Below are positions 4,747-17,431 of a stretch of DNA of 17,431 nucleotides, in pieces (the stretch's first letter is position 1; the number at the start of each line of letters is the position of its first letter). The notes below the pieces were generated by a model that saw nothing but the letters and a program-made list of their open reading frames with translations, was not told the origin of the DNA and ran no database searches. Source of the stretch: a virus (Duplodnaviria > Heunggongvirae > Uroviricota > Caudoviricetes); the IMG/VR virus record IMGVR_UViG_2541047898_000005, positions 1 to 17,431 of that record; one strand, 5' to 3'. Position numbers and translations under genes: made by a program.

Positions 4747-6117
4747 ATGACGTGGAAAGACAGGCTTCAGGATGCGTCATTTCGAGGTGTGCCGTTTAAG
4801 GTTGAAGAAGAAAGTGCGGGAACCGGCCGTCGTGTGGAAACACACGAATATCCGAACCGCGACAAACCCTATACCGAAGATCTGGGAAAAGTCACTTTCC
4901 GCCCGTCCATCACGGCTTATGTGGTGGGAGATGACTGCTTTGACCAGCGCGATCGCCTGATTGACGCGCTGAATAAACCCGGTCCCGGCACGCTTGTCCA
5001 TCCGACTTACGGTGAGCTGAAAGTCTGTGTTGACGGGGAAGTTCGGGTCAGCACATCGAAGAGTGAAGGGCGTATTGTCCGCTTTGACCTGAAGTTTGTC
5101 GAAGCGGGAGAACTCTCTTATCCCACTTCAGGTGCGGCGACGGCGCAGACGCTGATGTCATCCTGTTCTGCACTGGATGACTGCATCAGTGACAGCTTCA
5201 GTGGTTTCAGTATCGATGGCGTGGCGGATTTTGTGCAGAACGACGTCGTCGGTAATGCCGGCACAATGCTGGGGTATGTTTCTGATGCGATGAAAGTGGT
5301 GGATTCTGCCGTATCGGATGCCGCCAGGCTGTTGCAGGGGGATATCTCGGTACTTCTGCCGCCGCCATCGTCAGGCAAAAATTTCGTTGAGCAGGTGCAG
5401 AAAATGTGGCGTACCGGGAAACGCCTTTATGGTAACGCCAGCGACCTGGTCACCATGATCAAAACGCTTTCCGGTGTCAGCCTCGGCAGCGATCTGCAAC
5501 CGCGCGGCGTCTGGAAAACGGACAGTAAAACCACCGCCACGGCGACGCAGCAGCGTAACGTGGTTGCCAGCACCCTTCGTGCGACCGCAATCAGCGAAGC
5601 GGCGTATGCCGTCACCCGATTGCCTGCGCCAACAACTTCCGCGGTGATGCAGAATGCCGCAGTGGGGCAGTCAACAACTTCCGCGGTGATGCAGAATGCC
5701 GCAGTGGGGCAGGCAACAACACCCGCGCAGAGCACTGGCTGGCCTTCCGTCACGCATCCGGCACTGAACAATGCTCCGGCGGTGAAAAGCACGGTTGACC
5801 TGCCGACGTGGGAAGAACTGACTGACATTCGCGACACACTGAATACGGCAACTGATAAGGAGTTGTCCCGTACAACCAGTGATGCGCTGTTTCTGGCGCT
5901 GCGCCGGGTGAAAGCAGATCTGAATGCGGATATCAACACGCGCCTTGAACAGTCTGCACGGATCATTCAGCGCACGCCGGATGAGGTTTTACCCGCGCTG
6001 GTGCTGGCGGCGACCTGGTTTGATAACGCGGCGCGTGACGCGGACATTATCCGGCGTAATGCCATTACGCATCCCGGCTTTGTGCCGGTGATCCCTCTGA
6101 AGGTGCCAGTGCAATGA
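4747..6117 (+). CDS. DNA circulation protein (Mu gpN / gp43-like)
   Basis: Position after the tape-measure gene in Mu order; N-terminus MTWKDRLQDASFRGVPF... matches my memory of the Mu N family. ATG at 4747 has a GGAG Shine-Dalgarno; the track's GTG at 4741 is less likely. Confidence 0.65.
   Translation: MTWKDRLQDASFRGVPFKVEEESAGTGRRVETHEYPNRDKPYTEDLGKVTFRPSITAYVVGDDCFDQRDRLIDALNKPGPGTLVHPTYGELKVCVDGEVRVSTSKSEGRIVRFDLKFVEAGELSYPTSGAATAQTLMSSCSALDDCISDSFSGFSIDGVADFVQNDVVGNAGTMLGYVSDAMKVVDSAVSDAARLLQGDISVLLPPPSSGKNFVEQVQKMWRTGKRLYGNASDLVTMIKTLSGVSLGSDLQPRGVWKTDSKTTATATQQRNVVASTLRATAISEAAYAVTRLPAPTTSAVMQNAAVGQSTTSAVMQNAAVGQATTPAQSTGWPSVTHPALNNAPAVKSTVDLPTWEELTDIRDTLNTATDKELSRTTSDALFLALRRVKADLNADINTRLEQSARIIQRTPDEVLPALVLAATWFDNAARDADIIRRNAITHPGFVPVIPLKVPVQ
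5632..5715 (+). repeat. 42-bp in-frame tandem duplication (2 units) inside the DNA-circulation gene
   Basis: acaacttccgcggtgatgcagaatgccgcagtggggcag(t/g)ca twice, encoding TTSAVMQNAAVGQ(S/A) twice. Confidence 0.9.
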
Positions 6118-11928: not shown

Positions 11929-11994
11929 CGTTTATGAAAATGAAGAAATAACAAGCAAATGGCATCATTCCTGCTTTTACCAGGGGGATTTAAC

Positions 11995-12549
11995 ATGCTT
12001 ATTGGCTATGTACGTGTATCAACAAATGACCAGAATACCGATCTACAACGTAATGCGCTGAACTGTGCAGGATGTGAGCTGATTTTTGAAGACAAGATAA
12101 GCGGTACAAAGTCCGACAGACCAGGACTGAAAAAGCTGCTCAGGACATTATCGGCAGGTGACACGCTGGTGGTCTGGAAACTGGACCGACTGGGGCGCAG
12201 TATGCGGCATCTTGTCGTGCTGGTGGAGGAGTTGCGCGAACGAGGCATCAACTTTCGTAGTCTGACGGATTCAATTGATACCAGTACCCCAATGGGGCGC
12301 TTTTTCTTTCATGTGATGGGTGCCCTGGCTGAAATGGAGCGTGAACTGATTGTTGAACGAACAAAAGCTGGACTGGAAGCTGCTCGCGCACAGGGACGAA
12401 TTGGTGGACGTCGCCCCAAACTTACACCAGAACAATGGGAGCAGGCCGGACGATTAATTGCAGCAGGAATTCCTCGCCAGAAGGTAGCGATCATCTATGA
12501 TGTTGGTGTATCGACACTGTATAAGATGTTTCCGGTCGGAGATAAATGA
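11995..12549 (+). CDS. pin: Site-specific DNA invertase, serine recombinase of the Gin/Hin/Pin/Cin family
   Basis: 184-aa product beginning MLIGYVRVSTNDQNTDLQRNAL... with the catalytic Ser in the YVRVST motif, ...VVWKLDRLGRSM..., and a C-terminal HTH-like region (GIPRQKVAIIYDVGVSTLYK). It matches the Gin/PinE sequences I remember closely. GGGGGA Shine-Dalgarno 6 nt upstream. The track's upstream Met (11959) is probably not the start. Confidence 0.9.
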   Translation: MLIGYVRVSTNDQNTDLQRNALNCAGCELIFEDKISGTKSDRPGLKKLLRTLSAGDTLVVWKLDRLGRSMRHLVVLVEELRERGINFRSLTDSIDTSTPMGRFFFHVMGALAEMERELIVERTKAGLEAARAQGRIGGRRPKLTPEQWEQAGRLIAAGIPRQKVAIIYDVGVSTLYKMFPVGDK

Positions 12550-12716
12550 AACCGCAGGCTCGTCGTATGCAAGAACGTGCTGCGGCTGGCTGGTGAACTT
12601 CCGATAGTGCGAGTATTGAATGATTTACAGCCGTTATTGATTTTACATATTTTTTGTATGAAAGGATTAGCGCCTCCTCCCACCGATCCTCCATGACTTT
12701 ACGCCACTGTCTCTCG

Positions 12717-12741
12717 GACTGCTATGTGCCAGGAGCGGATG
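12717..12741. repeat. Junction motif copy A (ggactgctatgtgccaggagcggatg)
   Basis: Shares gct(a/c)tgtg(c/t)caggagcgga(t/c)g with the copy at 14257-14281; located between pin and the first cargo gene. Confidence 0.5.
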
Positions 12742-12792
12742 CGACCCATCGGCATGTTTTAGTCGTCGCAAGCAAATCATAACGGTTAATTG

Positions 12793-12822
12793 TTGAGTAG
12801 ATTTTTCATGTCAATTTATATT
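12793..12822 (+). promoter_or_regulatory. Possible sigma70 promoter for the 432-aa cargo gene (TTGAGT, 18 nt, TATATT)
   Basis: Weak hexamer matches in an AT-rich leader; AAGGAAG Shine-Dalgarno before the ATG at 12882. Low confidence. Confidence 0.2.
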
Positions 12823-12881
12823 ATTGTAGATAAGTCTGATAAAAATTTCAGTCACATCCTCTTGGATAATAAGGAAGTTAT

Positions 12882-14180
12882 ATGAAAGCTCGTTTAATAC
12901 CACCGTACGAAAACTACACTGGCAATGTTTTATGGCGAAAAGAGGATTTTATTAATAAAGTCGACGATATCTCAACATCTCTAAAAAAGTTAAGAGATAT
13001 GGGATATTGGGCCAGTGCCTATCCTGAAGGAGATGGCATTACATTTAAATATACCAAGGATAGTTATCAAAAAAGCAGTATCGAAATTCTAGAAGACTTC
13101 TCAATATGCTTTGAGTGGGTAGAAATAGAGTTAGCTAAATCAAGAAGCTCTAACCTAGAATTAGCTGAATTAGAGGGTAAAAACAAAAATATGGAGTGCA
13201 TAGTTATTGTGCCGATTGAGAAGATTTTCATTCAGGAAACCATCGAGATCGGAAAGTATATTTTTTATTGCGGAAGACAATTTGATGAAGAGTCACATAA
13301 GCGATTATCAGAGCAAGATGGTTCGTATATACAGTTTAACTGTGACCTACCATATATTGATTTATTAAAACTTAATTCAAGCATTGATCATAACAGCCAT
13401 GTTATAAACATGTGTTTATCTATAGCTGAATATGCGCTTGATTTAGTCAGATTTTCTCACAGCTCATTTACACGTATGGAATATACCCCTAATCCTGCAG
13501 GTCAACGCTCTGACGGATTTTATGATGTAGAAATCATTCCTCGTGAGAGGACTCATCTTAAACCAATTAAGATAAGTGGAATATCAAGACCCCTTGCTGT
13601 GAGTAATAATTGGCTAGGCCCTCAGGTTGACAGCTTGTATTACCCTGGGTTGCAATATTTATCTTCTATCTACGATGGAGTCGTTGAAAATGAACTTTCA
13701 AAATTAGTTAGCTCCGTAGTTAGGGCATGTAGGCAATCTTTTTATTCAATTGGCGCGGAATCACAATTTCTAAACCTAGTCTTTGCACTTGATGGTCTTG
13801 CTAATATTGACCCAAATTGGAAAGGATGGAAGCAAAGGACCTACATTGCAGCACTTACATGTAATAACTCACTAATCAAATTTAAGAAAAACCTAGAAGT
13901 TTATGACGAGTTATATACTGACGTAAGAAACAAGCTTGTTCATGATGGTAAAGATTTTTACGAACTTAACGTCAACGCGAACGAATCCTCTGAACAAATC
14001 TTTAAGTATATTAAGATAATTATAATACTCATCGAAAGTAACGGCTTTTCCACTTTGCAAGAATTGAGAGATTATGCAGTTCACCTACTTCAGCAGGAGG
14101 ATTATAGAACTGCTTCTGTTGAGATAATTGACAAAGTATCTCTTTTAAGAGGAAAAAAACCTAATTATCCTTCATGGTGA
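12882..14180 (+). CDS. Hypothetical cargo protein with a C-terminal HEPN-like R-x4-H motif (candidate abortive-infection RNase)
   Basis: 432-aa AT-rich ORF with a strong Shine-Dalgarno. Motif DVRNKLVHDG fits the HEPN R-[NQ]-x3-H signature, about 90 residues from the C-terminus in a predicted helical region. Family assignment is inference. Confidence 0.45.
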   Translation: MKARLIPPYENYTGNVLWRKEDFINKVDDISTSLKKLRDMGYWASAYPEGDGITFKYTKDSYQKSSIEILEDFSICFEWVEIELAKSRSSNLELAELEGKNKNMECIVIVPIEKIFIQETIEIGKYIFYCGRQFDEESHKRLSEQDGSYIQFNCDLPYIDLLKLNSSIDHNSHVINMCLSIAEYALDLVRFSHSSFTRMEYTPNPAGQRSDGFYDVEIIPRERTHLKPIKISGISRPLAVSNNWLGPQVDSLYYPGLQYLSSIYDGVVENELSKLVSSVVRACRQSFYSIGAESQFLNLVFALDGLANIDPNWKGWKQRTYIAALTCNNSLIKFKKNLEVYDELYTDVRNKLVHDGKDFYELNVNANESSEQIFKYIKIIIILIESNGFSTLQELRDYAVHLLQQEDYRTASVEIIDKVSLLRGKKPNYPSW

Positions 14181-14256
14181 TTAAATCAACGTGCTAATTA
14201 ATTTTTAATATAACTTCTGCTCCTCGCTCTCAGCGGACCTTCAGCTCAGTGATATC

Positions 14257-14281
14257 GTCCGCTCTGTGTCAGGAGCGGACG
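14257..14281. repeat. Junction motif copy B, forming a hairpin (stem GTCCGCTC/GAGCGGAC, loop tgtgtcag) between convergent cargo genes
   Basis: 8-bp perfect stem read from the sequence; no U-tract, so not a canonical intrinsic terminator. Left half matches copy C, right half matches copy A. Confidence 0.5.
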
Positions 14282-14373
14282 TTACTGACATCACAATGTG
14301 TTAATCAATGGAGAGCAGGTCACCATAATGTCATGGGTATCGCTGGTGATATGATCGCAATACACGACAATTA

Positions 14374-15063
14374 TTATTTAATTATTTTAAAAAGTTCATT
14401 GTAGCTACAACCTTTGAATATTTCGAACTGATCATGGTAATTTGAATAAGCGCTTGCCATCATTCCGATATAACTATCCCATGATGACTCAGAAACTACC
14501 ATTTCACCACGCTCTAATTCATCAATTAAAATATAAATGATATTAAATTGTGCAACAAGAGCAGTGTAGGTGGTGATGAGATTATTTAGAAGGTCTGAAT
14601 GATTAGGTTTGATTTTCCACAAACCAAAACTATCCCGAATTGCAACTAATTCGAATCGTAAATCTTTTGACTCAGAAAGTAACTCCCTCCCACTTGTAGT
14701 GAGATGCTTGTAGAGTATGGGGTTCTCACTTTTTATTCTTGGCTGTATAGAAATAAGTGATTGATAACATTGATGATTTAAGTCCTTTGATCGAAACATG
14801 CTGTCGATGAACAATGTAGTTCTCTCGAAAGCCTTTTCTGATTTTTTGTTTTTAATCCATTCATTTACCCTTGTTAATGCATAAATCGCTAGTCCAAGTG
14901 TTATTGTTGAAACTGTTGCAGTAATTGTTGATGGTTCAATTTTTTTAAAAAACCAGATATCAATCCATGCAAAAGAGACTGAGCCGAGATACATAAACAA
15001 CATGTGACTCGCGAAGTATTCCCAAACACCTTTTAAATAGCTTTTCATGTAGATCCTTAACAT
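14374..15063 (-). CDS. Hypothetical membrane protein (two N-terminal TM helices plus a ~150-aa cytoplasmic domain); real start probably the internal Met at 15048
   Basis: AT-rich ORF. Hydrophobic segments MLFMYLGSVSFAWIDIWFF and ITATVSTITLGLAIYAL. The ATG whose reverse complement is at 15046-15048 has an AAGGA Shine-Dalgarno 5 nt upstream, whereas the first ATG has none. Confidence 0.5.
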   Translation of the reverse strand: MLRIYMKSYLKGVWEYFASHMLFMYLGSVSFAWIDIWFFKKIEPSTITATVSTITLGLAIYALTRVNEWIKNKKSEKAFERTTLFIDSMFRSKDLNHQCYQSLISIQPRIKSENPILYKHLTTSGRELLSESKDLRFELVAIRDSFGLWKIKPNHSDLLNNLITTYTALVAQFNIIYILIDELERGEMVVSESSWDSYIGMMASAYSNYHDQFEIFKGCSYNELFKIIK

Positions 15064-15217
15064 TTTCTTAATTATATTTTATGGTGGTATTTTTGTTAGT
15101 ATCGGTATGGATTAGAAATAGTTGATACTTTTATGCCCTGAGAGCATGAAAACTGGAAAAGCCTTGCTCATGATATAAATAGTGTTAGTTGCCACTGCTT
15201 TGGAAGTTATCCTTTAA

Positions 15218-15412
15218 ATGGGCTATCGGAAAGCCAGACTTCTAGCAGATGCTGAATCCGTGATTTTGCCGCTGGAGCGCGCTGTCAGGCTGAATATGGC
15301 AACAGATGAGGAGCGCAGTCGACTGGAGGCATGGGAACGCTACAGCGTTCTGGTCAGTCGTGTGGATCCTGCAAATCCTGAATGGCCGGAAATGCCGCAA
15401 GAAGTTGTATGA
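15218..15412 (+). CDS. Hypothetical small protein (64 aa; Glu/Arg-rich, predicted helical)
   Basis: ORF with normal (non-AT-rich) composition inside the 640-bp spacer between two cargo genes; no recognisable motif. May be a gene fragment. Confidence 0.25.
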
Positions 15413-15438
15413 GCTCTGGTGTGAGCTTACATATCTAT

Positions 15439-15478
15439 GGCACAGAGTAAAGCCTAATCTGACAGTCCGCTCTGTGCC
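15439..15478. repeat. Junction motif copy C within a 9-bp-stem hairpin (ggcacagag ... ctctgtgcc, 22-nt loop)
   Basis: Contains gtccgctctgtgcc, which shares 12 contiguous nt with copy B; lies between the membrane-protein gene and the RES-like gene. Confidence 0.5.
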
Positions 15479-15702
15479 GAAGCTAGCAAAGCCATGGTCC
15501 TTTCGCAGCAAGTTGCGTAAATAAGGCGTTTTTATCTCTTGAAGCATTCTACAAAGCCAACTCCTCGCTCAAACAGACGTGTCTGTTCAGCAATCTGCCC
15601 GCTTGGTATCAAGGGACGCCAGTAACGCGATACCGGGTGAATTCCTTCCTTAACTGCCCTCACATCATCTTTAATAATAGTTTACCCTGATATAACGGAT
15701 GA

Positions 15703-17082
15703 TCAGAAGTCAATCAGGTCATCGAATTTCTGAGGTGGCTCTTGTTTTCGAACGCTATCTCCCTGATGAATCTCCGTCTCACTTGTTTGGTATTTTACAC
15801 CAGTAATTTTATGATAAGTCATACTGTTGGTTTTCAACAGTAGTGCATCATTTTTGTCATGCGAGGATGAAAATGAACCCATATGTCTCGGTTTTATTTG
15901 TTCCTCAACTATCAACTGAATTTCCGGAACAAAAGCATACTGGTCATCTTCGATGTGTTCATACATCTCAACATTATATCGGCGAGATTTATCTGCGGCA
16001 TGCCTGACGCCGGAAGACTTATTAAACAGAACGACATTATATCCTGTCTCAGCATCCTCACCGTTGGCATCTACCTGGGTAGATTTAAAGCTGACACCAT
16101 CAAGCTTAAATTTATTTCGGTCACCTAGGTAATCGGCAACCACTTGGGTGATGAGGTAATCACTGTCCTGCCTTTTTCCAAAAGTAGGAAGCGTCAACTT
16201 ACGGGAAAGCGTACTGAAAAAAATCGCGCGCTCACTGGTTTTGCGAGTCTGAGGATCAAATTTACTACCTGAGCCGAAACTAATCGAGTCAAGGGCAGAA
16301 ATGTCCAGCACTTTTAGCTCGCGTAACGGTACAAAACAGGCCGTTACTACAATACTGCCGACGGGCGGCCTTACTTCAGCAATTGCCAAATTCACTGAGG
16401 TTGCACCGTAAAATACTGAAATCCCCTGTGCGTTCATACGGCCCGAGCGAGCCAAAGTTGTTGGGGGAGGTCCAAAATTTTTCTCGGGATGCTCCAAGGC
16501 TTGCTTTACTTCCTCTTGGTCCTCAAAAACCCTTGCACGAAAAAGATGAACCTCATCAGTCAGAGTTTTTATCGGTGAATTACTGTCTCTGTTTTTTAGT
16601 TTATCGATATCACTGAAAAGTGAATCTAGGAAATCATTAACTTCACGGTTAAAATATCGTGTTTCTTTCATAAGGGAGTCAGTGGCTTTACTCCAGGTAT
16701 GCGCAAGCTCTCCGCTATAGTGATTTATGTGCCGATAAAGAAACCCGTCATTATACCGGATGTAGTCATAATCGTTATGCGGATTATATTCATCACAAAG
16801 AAATTCATAAATATCTTCAGCTACGTCCCATTCGACGCCCAGTTCTCCGTAGATGACATCCTGCGCGCTATCACCGCGCCCGGAATCATAGATATCCTCA
16901 TATATATCATAGTAGTACTCAAAAACCTCATTCATCATCTTGAGAATATATTTGAGGTGGATGTTTTTACGCTTCCTTTTGCAGTAAGAGCAAATCTGAA
17001 AATTATTTCCAGTTTTTATTATATGCTGCATGACATATTTATCGTTCACGCATTTATGACAAATATACTTATCTTCCCACAT
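15703..17082 (-). CDS. RES-domain-like protein with an N-terminal Cys4 zinc-ribbon-like motif (candidate NAD+-targeting effector)
   Basis: 459-aa AT-rich ORF. N-terminus has CHKC...CSYC. Central segment LFRARV...(~25 aa)...ARSGRMNAQGISVFYGATSVNLAIAEV...(later) VSFKS...YNVVLF fits my memory of the RES (Arg-Glu-Ser) core, G-R-x-N...G...Y.A......A..E. No HMM search run. Confidence 0.55.
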   Translation of the reverse strand: MWEDKYICHKCVNDKYVMQHIIKTGNNFQICSYCKRKRKNIHLKYILKMMNEVFEYYYDIYEDIYDSGRGDSAQDVIYGELGVEWDVAEDIYEFLCDEYNPHNDYDYIRYNDGFLYRHINHYSGELAHTWSKATDSLMKETRYFNREVNDFLDSLFSDIDKLKNRDSNSPIKTLTDEVHLFRARVFEDQEEVKQALEHPEKNFGPPPTTLARSGRMNAQGISVFYGATSVNLAIAEVRPPVGSIVVTACFVPLRELKVLDISALDSISFGSGSKFDPQTRKTSERAIFFSTLSRKLTLPTFGKRQDSDYLITQVVADYLGDRNKFKLDGVSFKSTQVDANGEDAETGYNVVLFNKSSGVRHAADKSRRYNVEMYEHIEDDQYAFVPEIQLIVEEQIKPRHMGSFSSSHDKNDALLLKTNSMTYHKITGVKYQTSETEIHQGDSVRKQEPPQKFDDLIDF

Positions 17083-17278
17083 TTTTTACTCACTCATCAT
17101 CAGCTGATACAAGGTCACTTTCCTGCAATTTTATAATTAAATCAAGCATAAAAACCCTCTTCACACCTTAATGCTTTCAGTGTGAAAATAATTAGTGGTG
17201 CACTGTACTGATAATAATTACGAACTTCCGCTTCTCGCTCATAACAGACATTCACTACAGTTATGGTAGAAGGTATGT

Positions 17279-17431
17279 ATGCTGATTGGGGAAAGTGTGA
17301 AAGAAAAGAAGACTGCTGCGCTGTTTGTCGTCACCTTTATCTTCATTGGCTATGCAAGTCATAATACAAGGTGGGACAAAACTGAGACACATAAGGCCTC
17401 ACAATGGCTTGCAAGGCTTTACATGTTTTGA
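17279..17431 (+). CDS. Possible small membrane peptide (50 aa), divergent from the RES-like gene; ORF ends exactly at the window edge
   Basis: ATG at 17279 preceded by AGAAGG. Translation MLIGESVKEKKTAALFVVTFIFIGYASHNTRWDKTETHKASQWLARLYMF has one hydrophobic helix. Below the ORF-track length cut-off; weak support. Confidence 0.2.
   Translation: MLIGESVKEKKTAALFVVTFIFIGYASHNTRWDKTETHKASQWLARLYMF

Follow-up and report, generated by a model that had tools for sequence, protein, structure and literature searches.

Paired 24-bp sequences as apparent exchange boundaries of accessory cassettes in unrelated prophages and genomic islands

Most new anti-phage systems are coming from hotspots in prophages and islands, and how unrelated cargo comes to reach the same position in unrelated backbones is unexplained; published accounts invoke flanking homology or cos ends. 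The question is posed in compact form by the stretch of tailed-phage DNA considered here (17,431 nt in all, referred to below as the window), in which a conserved phage gene, pin, is followed by accessory genes whose junctions carry short, related motifs. What are these motifs, and what do they say about the arrival of the cargo? An initial annotation had offered three possibilities, namely recombination sites, scars of serial cassette insertion, or structured RNA elements, and we weigh these and other explanations here.

Two site types at the cargo junctions

The motifs first noted were three, A, B and C, and their coordinates and sequences hold as originally given (Table 1). The degenerate pattern proposed for them matches A, B and C and nothing else in the 17.4 kb, a count reached in 0 of 200 shuffles, and a pattern for the right half said to be common to A and B matches only those two. 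The three are indeed related, being copies of one site, which we call T1 (24-nt consensus GTCCGCT-y-TGTGCCA-nn-AGCGGAC); what does not hold is the idea of a single type, as there is also a T2 (24 nt, GTCCGCT-yy-TCGCTCA-n-AGCrGAC), which is approximately an inverted T1 with another 7-nt core. Both are dyad-symmetric DNA sites in which arms of 7–8 nt surround an invariant asymmetric 7-nt core, and it is in or at this core that the cross-backbone joints described below fall. An 11+2+11 symmetry is visible in both, with a GC dinucleotide at the dyad centre (positions 12–13). A search with the full-length consensuses, allowing up to 3 mismatches, returned only the described sites in the window and none in 200 shuffles.

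Table 1. Elements of the cargo region and its flanks, in window coordinates
Element	Position	Strand	Remarks
pin-type serine DNA invertase	11959–12549	+	Pfam Resolvase and HTH_7; pinE in a near-identical E. coli record
Motif A, T1	12717–12740	+	GACTGCT A TGTGCCA GG AGCGGAT; decayed arms; core 12725–12731
Cassette 1 cargo	12741–14214	+	432-aa protein at 12882–14180
T2, left half of the B double element	14215–14238	+	TTCTGCT CC TCGCTCT C AGCGGAC; core 14224–14230; inverted repeat
18-nt linker between T2 and T1	14239–14256	+	cttcagctcagtgatatc; conserved in L002–L005
Motif B, T1	14257–14280	+	GTCCGCT C TGTGTCA GG AGCGGAC; core 14265–14271, one substitution relative to TGTGCCA
Cassette 2 cargo	14281–17225		229-aa ORF, tail-fibre-assembly remnant, relic C, RES-domain protein
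229-aa ORF	14374–15063	-	cassette 2
Tail-fibre-assembly gene remnant	15218–15412	+	Pfam Caudo_TAP; cassette 2
Motif C with upstream partner	15439–15487	+	T1 with decayed right arm (GTCCGCT C TGTGCC GA AGCTAGC)
459-aa RES-domain protein	15703–17082	-	Pfam RES and HEPN_RES_NTD1; cassette 2
Fourth element, T2	17226–17249	+	TTCCGCT TC TCGCTCA T AACAGAC; core 17235–17241; right platform site

Read from left to right, the region runs pin, T1, a HEPN-like gene, a T2.T1 doublet, 3 kb of further cargo and T2. The pin gene is the last conserved phage gene ahead of the cargo and forms, together with positions 12550–12724, a left platform; its downstream flank is kept in other prophages as far as A, the left platform site of the window's prophage family, 168 bp away. 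Three other pin-carrying prophages (L247–L249) have the same left flank and the left arm of A followed by different cargo, and they also share the right arm and flank of the T2 at 17226–17249, which closes the cargo region. B forms the right-hand part of a double element of 66 nt, with a T2 as its start-side partner, then the linker, then B itself. The initial placement of three copies at cargo-gene boundaries stands for A and B and fails for C, which lies within a single 3-kb cassette. The C region corresponds to a conserved stretch found after the tail-fibre-assembly gene in P2-like phages, its decayed right arm reaching 15487, and on the evidence of its sequence C is an internal relic in cassette 2 and no active junction. 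The window's phage has a Mu-type baseplate and its cargo follows pin, so that the cargo lies outside the P2 G–FI position. Several homologs of the 432-aa protein are named Apea-like HEPN domain protein in UniRef; neither this protein nor the 229-aa ORF has a match in Pfam, PADLOC, PHROGs or NCBIfam. Beyond the window, a tRNA-like fragment received no confirmation from ARAGORN.

Cassettes shared between unrelated backbones

The same arrangement recurs widely. In more than 240 fetched loci the order is T1–cargo–T2, with neighbouring cassettes joined by T2–18 nt–T1. Among 119 viral loci, which were collected with a T1-only pattern, T2 nonetheless co-occurs: a T1 is followed by a T2 in 61 instances, 0.5–5.8 kb apart, and a T2 by a T1 in 15, with a start-to-start spacing of 40–42 nt in 11 of these 15. 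In P2-like prophages, T1 lies 68 bp past the tail-fibre-assembly gene and T2 about 216 bp ahead of the sheath gene. Cargo is oriented forward relative to the sites in 27 cases and in reverse in 14. The concern that the motif might be a common genome-wide repeat unrelated to cargo does not apply to E. coli, in which 849 of 5426 genomes carry the B element, normally as one copy (maximum 3), and it lies under no annotated feature in 60 of the 60 matches listed. In soil Alphaproteobacteria the same hairpin recurs as a densely dispersed intergenic repeat, with 470 copies across the 537 kb of loci fetched, a REP-like pattern that may reflect some other mobilising activity.

It had been suggested that cargo polymorphisms be compared for breaks at the motifs, and such breaks are found in or at A, B, C and the T2 at 17226. 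For example, positions 14257–17249 of the window are the entire Z/fun hotspot content of a P2-like locus, L112 (99.5% over 2993 bp). The first base of this match is the first base of B; at the other end the two sequences are identical through TCGCTCA and then read TAACAGAC-attcac in the window versus AAGCAGAC-tgtcag in L112, a joint directly past the T2 core. Cassette 1 has a counterpart in Klebsiella aerogenes L268 (91.4% over 1515 bp, window 12725–14238), where the homology starts at the first core base of A and ends at the T2 at 14215–14238, and where the cassette sits directly downstream of a gene for a small integrase, the 200-aa tyrosine recombinase discussed below. The same cassette is found between T1 and T2 in Serratia; next to a Pseudomonas homolog of the 432-aa gene both T1 and T2 are absent. 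Homology with other pin-carrying prophages stops inside A, and more than 40 P2-like loci align to 15225–15478, ending at 15477–15483, i.e. at C.

Four cargo families occur on more than one backbone, and in all four T1 position 8 follows the backbone and positions 16–17 follow the cargo. Wherever cross-backbone cases have informative markers, every joint falls between T1 positions 8 and 16 or directly after the T2 core; the outer half-site remains with the backbone and the inner half-site moves with the cargo. Breakpoint histograms have their modes at T1 position 16 and T2 position 9 and are not exclusive, with 50 of 367 same-left pairs, a count of non-independent events, already differing at position 8. 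The backbones that share the same cargo are the P2 Z/fun hotspot, the post-pin locus, a lambdoid early-region locus and islands around the 200-aa tyrosine recombinase; conversely, one backbone may receive many cargos: P2 Z/fun has 12 families and the lambdoid locus 9. Clinically relevant cargo includes an eptA-type cluster in Idiomarina and, in CFT073, an operon for iron uptake. These comparisons show that the sites mark exchange boundaries of accessory (mostly anti-phage) cassettes among unrelated prophages and genomic islands, and the early suggestions of recombination sites or serial insertion scars gain support from the 99.5% L112 and 91% Klebsiella boundaries, which lie at the sites. The loci yielded no excised circle, no empty site and no product of inversion, nor was any recombination event seen or reconstructed in real time.

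A candidate enzyme and the competing explanations

The window contains no IntI-like ORF among its reading frames, and most T1/T2 sites, including those of the window and of all P2-like loci, lie in prophages without a nearby small recombinase. The exchange enzyme is probably the tiny, very conserved tyrosine recombinase encountered beside cassette 1 in Klebsiella. This protein has 200 aa and comprises the catalytic domain only, with no N-terminal core-binding domain; it matches Pfam Phage_integrase (E = 5e-19), its catalytic set (R51, K79, H148, R151, H174, Y183) is complete and unchanged in 10 homologs that represent six genera, and it is 76–96% identical from E. coli to Idiomarina, Pseudoalteromonas and Cycloclasticus. 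A PDB sequence search gave nothing at E <= 1e-3. The int module is carried by 986 of 5426 E. coli genomes (∼18%), and in 7 of 7 E. coli and viral loci the gene lies between a T2 core (...T|CGCTCATAAGGGAC) and a T1 core (...CAGCCC TGTGCCA|nn AGCGGAC). The T1' downstream of the gene is kept in Idiomarina and Cycloclasticus, and in Idiomarina 6.9 kb of cargo, closed by a perfect T2, comes after int–T1'. In Klebsiella L268, int is followed by three cassettes separated by T2.T1 doublets, and E. coli CFT073 (L004) is laid out alike.

Because the protein has no N-terminal core-binding domain and scores weakly against models of FimB/FimE-type invertases (18–27 bits; cut-offs 221–222), its real reaction might be inversion. 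One candidate inversion, suggested by dynamin genes that lie to one side of int in L003 and to the other in L004, was ruled out, the dynamin genes being unrelated; the two loci have only T1-HEC08-int-T1' in common. FimB/FimE-type enzymes resemble the small recombinase in their length of ∼200 aa and in having a catalytic domain with a short N-terminal region, and they act, where this is known, on short inverted repeats; they differ in the scores just given, which are far below the cut-offs, and in their associated DNA, which is a promoter switch and not a set of exchangeable cargo units. When the E. coli-type enzyme was sought in 90 alphaproteobacterial loci, only one weak FimB-like match appeared, and the FimB-like family there has hairpin doublets upstream of its gene in 6 of 7 contexts, although at about 1 hairpin per kb they may lie there by chance. 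No paper connecting the small recombinase to T1/T2 was found in the searchable literature.

We consider it reasonably probable that T1 and T2 are site-specific cassette-exchange sites, integron-like or pdif-like, with the small tyrosine recombinase as the likeliest enzyme; the exchange boundaries are those shown by the joints above, and the enzyme is one that we infer. Each site would be a double-stranded core site, two inverted arms around an asymmetric overlap, that undergoes conservative site-specific recombination; the architecture fits the general plan of tyrosine-recombinase core sites, in which strands are exchanged within an overlap of 6–8 bp between the binding arms. From their two-base core difference, the T1 and T2 cores would be mutually incompatible, and because the cores differ, a T1...T2 unit would be exchangeable as a block, as in recombinase-mediated cassette exchange with heterospecific sites or in integron or pdif-module traffic. 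The recombinase is itself encoded between a T2 core and a T1 core; prophages that have no copy, such as the window's, would depend on its action in trans. A and the T2 at 17226 would then be the phage's two docking sites, B the seam joining two cassettes, and C a scar that cassette 2 retains from former residence in a P2-like phage.

Several other explanations deserve consideration. The sites could be passive homology patches, REP-like palindromes whose primary role is another one, if they have any, and at which cassettes are swapped by general, short-homology or gyrase-type illegitimate recombination without a dedicated recombinase. Copies of the sites are near-identical over 24 bp, about the least that RecA-dependent exchange requires, and such a patch could support short-homology recombination; the scarcity of recombinase genes near the sites, the joints that map outside the core and the dense dispersed hairpins of the Alphaproteobacteria also fit. 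We nevertheless regard this as unlikely, given the confinement of the informative cross-backbone joints, the distinct invariant 7-nt cores with their fixed T1...T2 order and orientation, the recombinase gene embedded precisely between a T2 core and a T1 core, and the decayed A and 17226 T2, which have no 24-bp identity and still bound cassettes. A function at the level of RNA, as terminators, insulators or mRNA-stabilising stem-loops for autonomous cassette expression that would mark boundaries for that reason only, is decidedly improbable. The hairpins originally proposed are real: B has an 8–9 bp stem (-11.3 kcal/mol as DNA, z = -6.0) and C an alternative stem of 9–10 bp with the upstream ggcacagag (-10 kcal/mol, z = -2.7), both folding significantly better than shuffles. 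Additionally, the sites are always intergenic, and REP elements are known to stabilise upstream mRNA. The structured-RNA proposal is unsupported, however, in view of A, which folds no better than shuffles (z = 0.2), and of the T2 at 17226–17249, which has no fold, yet both are exact boundaries; of T2 arms without covariation (5.50 paired positions vs 5.49 +/- 0.06 shuffled), with perfect stems in only 10 of 64 T2; and of 24-nt letters that are conserved, loop core included, where the pairing of the stem is not. Moreover, the sequence after the sites is not T-rich and has no T-run, none of four terminator-like calls in 12500–17431 lies on a T1/T2 site, cargo genes occur in either orientation relative to the sites, and Rfam returned nothing relevant (gathering threshold for the window and 13 loci, E-value threshold for 12550–17431).

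Further down the scale, as very improbable, we place the use of T1/T2 as secondary sites by a neighbouring serine invertase, whether Pin or the invertases of the P2 Z/fun locus. The closeness of pin to A would suit such an enzyme, as would the pin-like genes that adjoin T1 or T2 in L092, L123 and L148, the frequency of invertases in the P2 Z/fun hotspot described in a preprint, and the central GC dinucleotide of both site types. Most T1/T2 loci, however, have no invertase, and the informative joints are only loosely placed either side of position 12–13. Gin/Hin/Pin-type crossover sites, which are 26 bp long, have AAACC..GGTTT-type half-sites and work with a Fis-dependent enhancer that lies in the invertase gene, look unlike T1/T2 when the consensus sequences are compared by eye; enzymes of this type need the enhancer and promote inversion, not exchange, and pin's own crossover sites presumably lie in the tail-fibre segment 9790–11950. 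That the sites are classical attC sites, folded as single strands and recombined by IntI, is scarcely credible, for all that integrons look alike in several respects: a tyrosine recombinase beside arrays of mostly single-gene cassettes, one imperfect palindrome of ∼60–70 nt made of paired 7-nt boxes per junction (here the ∼66-nt T2–linker–T1 element with its four boxes), variant sites next to the recombinase gene, as attI is, anti-phage genes among the cargo and, here, a GTT that often directly follows T1. IntI is about 320 aa with an extra IntI-specific segment, and attC is conserved in structure and not in sequence, the reverse of the pattern seen for T1/T2. The recombinase here has 200 aa, with the catalytic domain only, and reaches 16–18 bits against NCBIfam integron-integrase models whose cut-offs are 265 and 435; the failed model scores and the reversed conservation effectively refute integron membership. 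Additionally, here two site types with different cores stand one either side of each cassette, crossovers fall in the spacers of these two different sites instead of at G|TT in a single R' box, the recombinase gene has cassettes to either side of it, cassettes occur in both orientations, and T1/T2 are also built into phage genomes as docking points.

Relation to known systems and implications

The pdif modules of Acinetobacter plasmids, in which XerC/XerD sites flank resistance modules, are likewise discrete modules bounded by short, inversely oriented, dyad-symmetric tyrosine-recombinase sites, with the same module found in different backbones with exact boundaries. They differ in that here a dedicated small recombinase is physically linked to the sites and the sites reside in prophages and islands, in Enterobacterales as well as in other Gammaproteobacteria; we also take T1/T2 to be without resemblance to dif (the 28-bp, 11-6-11 XerC/XerD site). 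Engineered cassette exchange with heterospecific lox or FRT sites uses the same arms with different spacers, so that a flanked block is exchangeable without excision, and the T1/T2 system would be a natural version. REP, BIME and REPIN elements are also short intergenic palindromes, often in inverted doublets with a fixed linker, and in alphaproteobacterial MAGs the same hairpins reach a REP-like density, which makes the comparison lineage-dependent; in E. coli, by contrast, T1/T2 are low-copy, confined to accessory DNA and ordered T1...T2 around cargo, they have no GTAG-type head, and the linked enzyme is a true tyrosine recombinase. No HUH/Y1 (RAYT) transposase gene was seen in the fetched loci.

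Prophage defence hotspots, and the P2 Z/fun locus among them, overlap with the window in content. Cassette 2 is what fills a P2-like Z/fun hotspot, a position bounded by the tail-fibre-assembly gene G and the sheath gene FI, with identical cargo at that locus in L112 and a remnant of gene G inside the cassette. Nilsson et al. 2004 refers in its title to site-specific recombination and is possible prior art. The defence cargo of the Z/fun hotspot is documented (Vassallo 2022; Rousset 2022), and the hotspot papers define the locus through the genes on its flanks, with cos-end or homologous recombination as the suggested mechanism. These two papers, the iLund4u preprint and papers on P2 diversity and P2 regulatory genes contain no T1/T2, double junction or small recombinase, and literature searches by exact site sequence, protein accession and topic returned no description of T1/T2.

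A wider hypothesis is one that we hold tentatively, as somewhat less than an even prospect: T1/T2 may be the att sites of an unrecognised, widespread cassette system in which the 200-aa recombinase would swap units at docking sites. These docking sites would be hard-wired in P2-like, lambdoid and pin-carrying myoviruses, integrative elements and chromosomal islands across Gammaproteobacteria, and the cargo would comprise defence, metal-resistance, eptA-type and iron-uptake genes. It may also have ties to the FimB-like recombinases and hairpin-doublet repeats found throughout soil Alphaproteobacteria.

A defined 24-bp site pair with a candidate enzyme would make the question of how cargo lands testable at the bench, and T1/T2 sites would account for identical systems in P2-like, lambdoid and Mu-tailed phages. 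The pair would also supply a simple sequence rule by which cassettes can be delimited and unknown defence genes mined, for example the three unannotated ORFs here, and the T1/T2 system could yield a compact natural cassette-exchange tool. If the wider hypothesis is true, the system would be a second, integron-independent cassette route and the mechanism behind 'defence hotspots'.

Two types of site at the cargo junctions

The window holds the last part of an E. coli prophage whose baseplate genes are of the Mu type, and a 99.9% identical copy of it is present in E. coli 19SZHZ886Rt. Adjoining pin is an ordinary Gin/Pin-type host-range switch: an invertible tail-fibre segment that holds alternative fibre C-termini and two tail-fibre-assembly genes in opposite orientations. 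On the 3' side of pin are four ORFs without phage function (Table). Homologs of the 432-aa ORF, 44-99% identical, occur in Salmonella, Klebsiella, Serratia, Pantoea, Pseudomonas, Vibrio and Shewanella, and some are named Apea-like HEPN in UniRef; the 229-aa ORF has no match whatever. The 459-aa RES-domain protein, whose gene is carried by both the P2-like hotspot and the window phage, has no match in PADLOC, PHROG or NCBIfam and is a candidate stand-alone NAD-targeting defence toxin.

Table. Features of the cargo region and of the adjoining phage genes (window positions)
Feature	Position	Strand	Remarks
Mu-type phage genes			Sheath, tape measure, baseplate J, Gp48
Invertible tail-fibre segment	9790-11950
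pin	11959-12549		Pin-type serine invertase
Motif A	12717-12741		T1, arms decayed
432-aa ORF	12882-14180		No family match
Left partner of B	14215-14238		T2
Motif B	14257-14281		T1 (14257-14280), core 14265-14271
229-aa ORF	14374-15063	Opposite to 432-aa ORF
Tail-fibre-assembly gene remnant			64 codons, among the four ORFs after pin
Inverted core copy tGGCACAgag	15439-15447		In P2-like prophage L002, 4172-4180; in lambdoid platforms, e.g. L005, about 4796-4804
Motif C	15465-15478		T1, right arm decayed
459-aa RES-domain protein	15703-17082	-	RES domain; weak HEPN/RES N-terminal domain match
Fourth element	17226-17249		T2

The initial annotation had described three related motifs, A, B and C, at the boundaries of these cargo genes, and they are present exactly as described. 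Its degenerate pattern matches the 17.4-kb window only at 12717, 14257 and 15465, a number of matches reached in 0 of 200 dinucleotide-preserving shuffles, and a pattern for the right half matches A and B only. Folded as single-stranded DNA, B forms the hairpin that had been proposed, with a 9-bp stem (-11.3 kcal/mol, z = -6.0), and C pairs as proposed with the upstream ggcacagag (-10 kcal/mol, z = -2.7); A folds no better than its shuffles in the same calculation. Additionally, B makes up the right half of a double element in which two sites are separated by an 18-nt linker and which a repeat finder reports as a 28-nt imperfect inverted repeat, and a fourth related element lies shortly beyond the last cargo gene.

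Set against the P2-like prophage L002 and the genomic islands L003-L005, the motifs fall into two 24-nt families with common 7-nt arms, T1 (GTCCGCT y TGTGCCA nn AGCGGAC) and T2 (GTCCGCT yy TCGCTCA n AGCrGAC), each with a 7-nt core between the arms. Read as its reverse complement, T2 aligns with T1 in register and differs from it at two core positions (TGAGCGA vs TGTGCCA). That B has its left half in common with C and its right half with A, as remarked earlier, is explained by all three being copies of a single site. The core of B reads TGTGTCA in the window and TGTGCCA in both the 99.9% identical E. coli record L001 and the P2-like prophage L112. This single change might inactivate the junction of the two cassettes, provided that crossover takes place in the core. 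In P2-like and lambdoid platforms, some 16-18 nt upstream of T1, its core recurs in inverted form as tGGCACAgag; in the lambdoid platform both partners have changed (ggcacaggg with cTTTGTGCC), the pairing being kept through G-T. This inverted copy may serve as an accessory binding site or form an alternative structure, or it may be a relic of an inverted T1.

Joints of the same cargo on different backbones

The initial annotation had suggested testing whether cargo polymorphisms break at the motifs, and where the same cargo is found on unlike backbones, the joints are indeed exact at the sites. For example, cassette 2, the cargo between B and the fourth element, matches L112 at 99.5% identity over 2993 bp (14257-17249) and makes up, in that P2-like prophage, the entire gene G-gene FI content. 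Identity starts at base 1 of the T1 of B and continues on the right side through the T2 core TCGCTCA, after which the two sequences diverge immediately (TAACAGAC-attcactac in the window vs AAGCAGAC-tgtcagattt in P2). Cassette 1, the cargo between A and B that holds the 432-aa gene, matches Klebsiella aerogenes (L268) at 91.4% identity over 1515 bp (12725-14238), from the first core base of A to the end of the T2 of B. Here the right arm AGCGGAT and the following gYgacccatcgRcatgtttt move with the cargo, and the left arm is specific to the backbone (GACTGCTA in the window vs AGCAGCCC in Klebsiella). In other E. coli prophages that carry pin, different cargo stands between the left flank and left arm of A and the right arm and flank of the fourth element: a single hypothetical gene, IS1 plus a gene, or a BCCT transporter plus two more genes.

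Each of three further cargo families has two backbones: P2 and lambdoid, lambdoid and integrase island, or P2 and another. Two of the three have backbones that differ at T1 position 8, and there the base at position 8 goes with the backbone and those at positions 16-17 go with the cargo. T2 is identical in all three families to the end of its core, or to a point just before it, and then continues as the backbone. Among site pairs with only one flank in common, T1 position 16 is the commonest place of the first difference and T2 position 9 that of the last; these positions flank the invariant cores. These pair counts represent non-independent events and their distributions have tails; they are consistent with core-centred exchange, short of proof. 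At the level of sequence, these comparisons show that T1 and T2 are the boundaries of exchangeable units, that the joints are precise, with the sites remaining 24 nt long throughout, and that cross-backbone cases in which the markers are informative have their joints in or at the core.

Motif C has a different place in this layout. Window 15225-15478 aligns with more than 40 P2-like loci, in alignments that end at 15477-15483, and in L002 the same sequence runs on into a complete T1; therefore C and the remnant of gene G together are a P2-like phage's left docking site, one that was taken along as cassette 2 grew. The initial suggestion that the motifs are scars of serial insertion thus stands for C in part: it is a scar, but it is internal to the unit common to L112 and the window and not a current junction.

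A candidate recombinase and the rival explanations

What kind of element are these sites, and what acts on them? The initial annotation had also offered structured RNA, and B and C do form hairpins, but several findings speak against this option. The largest cargo ORF lies on the plus strand in 27 and on the minus strand in 14 of 41 distinct T1...T2 units. The T2 arms, at sites ascertained independently of the arms, form a mean of 5.50 Watson-Crick pairs of 7, vs 5.49 +/- 0.06 with arms shuffled among sites, i.e. they do not covary, and perfect stems occur in 10 of 64 T2 sites. Neither A nor the T2 at 17226 folds, yet each is an exact boundary; the sites lack a T-tail, a terminator scan called none of them, and they have no match in Rfam. 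What is conserved is both arms, each independently, and an asymmetric core, a pattern that looks like that of a protein-bound double-stranded recombination site and is the opposite of that seen in integron attC. By their defining membership tests, the T1/T2 system belongs to neither integrons, REP/BIME elements nor terminators.

A tyrosine recombinase gene is built into the T2/T1 junction. Each of the four non-P2 contexts of the B element examined in E. coli holds this 603-nt gene, int, with the annotation site-specific integrase, and int occupies the exact place of the 18-nt linker of B in 7 of 7 E. coli and viral loci. Its 200-aa product consists of a Phage_integrase catalytic domain only, with an intact and invariant R-K-H-R-H-Y catalytic set; it scores far under the cut-offs of the XerC/D, IntI and FimB/E models, and its identity between E. 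coli and Providencia, Proteus, Pantoea, Idiomarina, Pseudoalteromonas, Rheinheimera and Cycloclasticus is 76-96%. Upstream of int is a T2 variant (T2') in which the left arm and yy of the neighbouring cargo are joined to a constant CGCTCATAAGGGAC; downstream is a T1 variant (T1') in which a constant GGGCTG-loop-CAGCCC TGTGCCA is joined to the nn AGCGGAC of the next cargo, and T1' is retained in Idiomarina and Cycloclasticus. The islands L003 and L004 have only the block T1-HEC08-T2'-int-T1' in common, and in Klebsiella the cassette nearest after int is a homolog of the 432-aa gene of the window. The int module is present in 986 of 5426 E. coli genomes.

We hypothesize that the recombinase would bind the arms and exchange strands within the 7-nt cores. 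The unlike cores would exclude T1 x T2 recombination, so that a T1...T2 unit would be swapped as a block by two crossovers; in prophages without int, the window's included, the enzyme would act in trans from an island within the same cell. That the small recombinase exchanges T1...T2 units at their cores, in trans for int-less prophages, seems to us somewhat the likelier account. The main rival, which we regard as rather unlikely, is that the sites are 24-bp patches used by general or illegitimate recombination with no dedicated enzyme.

Order, spread and cargo of the sites

T2 co-occurs with T1 in viral contig loci that had been fetched with a pattern for T1 only (at least 119 loci). Among the matches listed, T1 is followed by T2 along the T1 strand 61 times, 0.5-5.8 kb apart, and T2 by T1 15 times, 11 of these at 40-42 nt, the B-type seam; irregular orders are T2-T2 (7 times) and T1-T1 (3 times). 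In P2-like prophages, T1 lies 68 bp 3' of gene G (tail-fibre assembly) and T2 ∼216 bp ahead of gene FI (sheath), the interval known as the Z/fun variable locus. In total, 104 T1...T2 units represent 53 cargo families on about 30 backbone flank families, with 12 cargo families at the P2 locus and 9 at the lambdoid early-region locus. The B double element is found in 849 of 5426 complete E. coli genomes, one per genome (maximum 3), and lies under no annotated feature in 60 of 60 matches listed.

The cargo includes the known single-gene defence systems PD-T7-1, PD-T7-5 and HEC-08. In E. coli CFT073 (L004 6045-11788; NZ_CP051263 273743-279486), a complete 5.7-kb operon for a TonB-dependent receptor and an ABC transporter lies between T1 and T2; therefore cargo is not confined to single defence genes. 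In Idiomarina, a 6.9-kb sensor-kinase/eptA/PAP2 cluster comes after int-T1' and is closed by a perfect T2. In Idiomarina sp. X4 (CP025000; L250 8001-15534), this cluster, with a sensor kinase, response regulator, EptA-type phosphoethanolamine transferase, PAP2, DAG kinase and sulfatase, is a polymyxin-resistance-type module packaged as a cassette beside gcvP. In Proteus, the int element lies with single-gene units in the rpoS-mutS region, a classic hypervariable region of an enterobacterium; in Proteus mirabilis (L256-L258 5996-9353), the small integrase is accompanied in this intergenic region by T1/T2-bounded NUDIX, acetyltransferase and Fic units. Separately, ∼250 bp past the window end and after the last T2, L001 14590-14640 resembles a tRNA 3' end (…GGTTCGACTCCTATTATCGGCACCA); ARAGORN calls no tRNA there, and the stretch may be a prophage attachment-site remnant beside the pao operon.

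A one-genome-per-species scan with the T1 pattern gave at least 120 loci, and those among the matches listed comprise about 30 in Gammaproteobacteria, mostly Enterobacterales, and about 90 in MAGs of soil Alphaproteobacteria (L127-L246; Pseudolabrys, Xanthobacteraceae, Hyphomicrobiales and Methyloceanibacter, with a few Acidobacteriota and Actinomycetota bins). The soil MAGs carry an identical T1, GTCCGCT T TGTGCCA AT AGCGGAC, usually preceded across a ∼21-nt linker by a second hairpin; such sister hairpins have the same arms and the loops TTGGGTCAAA and TTACCCCCGAA. There are 470 hairpins in 537 kb of fetched soil loci, with doublets about 1 per kb, and they occupy many intergenic gaps beside ABC-substrate-binding-protein paralogs. 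A separate family of ∼200-aa FimB-like recombinases, unrelated to the small int, has a doublet just upstream of its gene in 6 of 7 contexts, an adjacency that could be fortuitous at this hairpin density; in L261, three consecutive genes, the recombinase last, have a doublet between each. Either the T1 family has become a REP-like repeat in these genomes, or the cassette reading reaches far beyond Enterobacterales.

The P2 Z/fun hotspot and its defence cargo were already known. Searches by sequence, accession and topic gave no paper on T1/T2, the double junction, the docking sites in other phage families or the small recombinase; Nilsson et al. may have noted the repeats that flank Z/fun. By analogy, T1 and T2 would form a site-specific gene-cassette system that can be likened to integrons and pdif modules.
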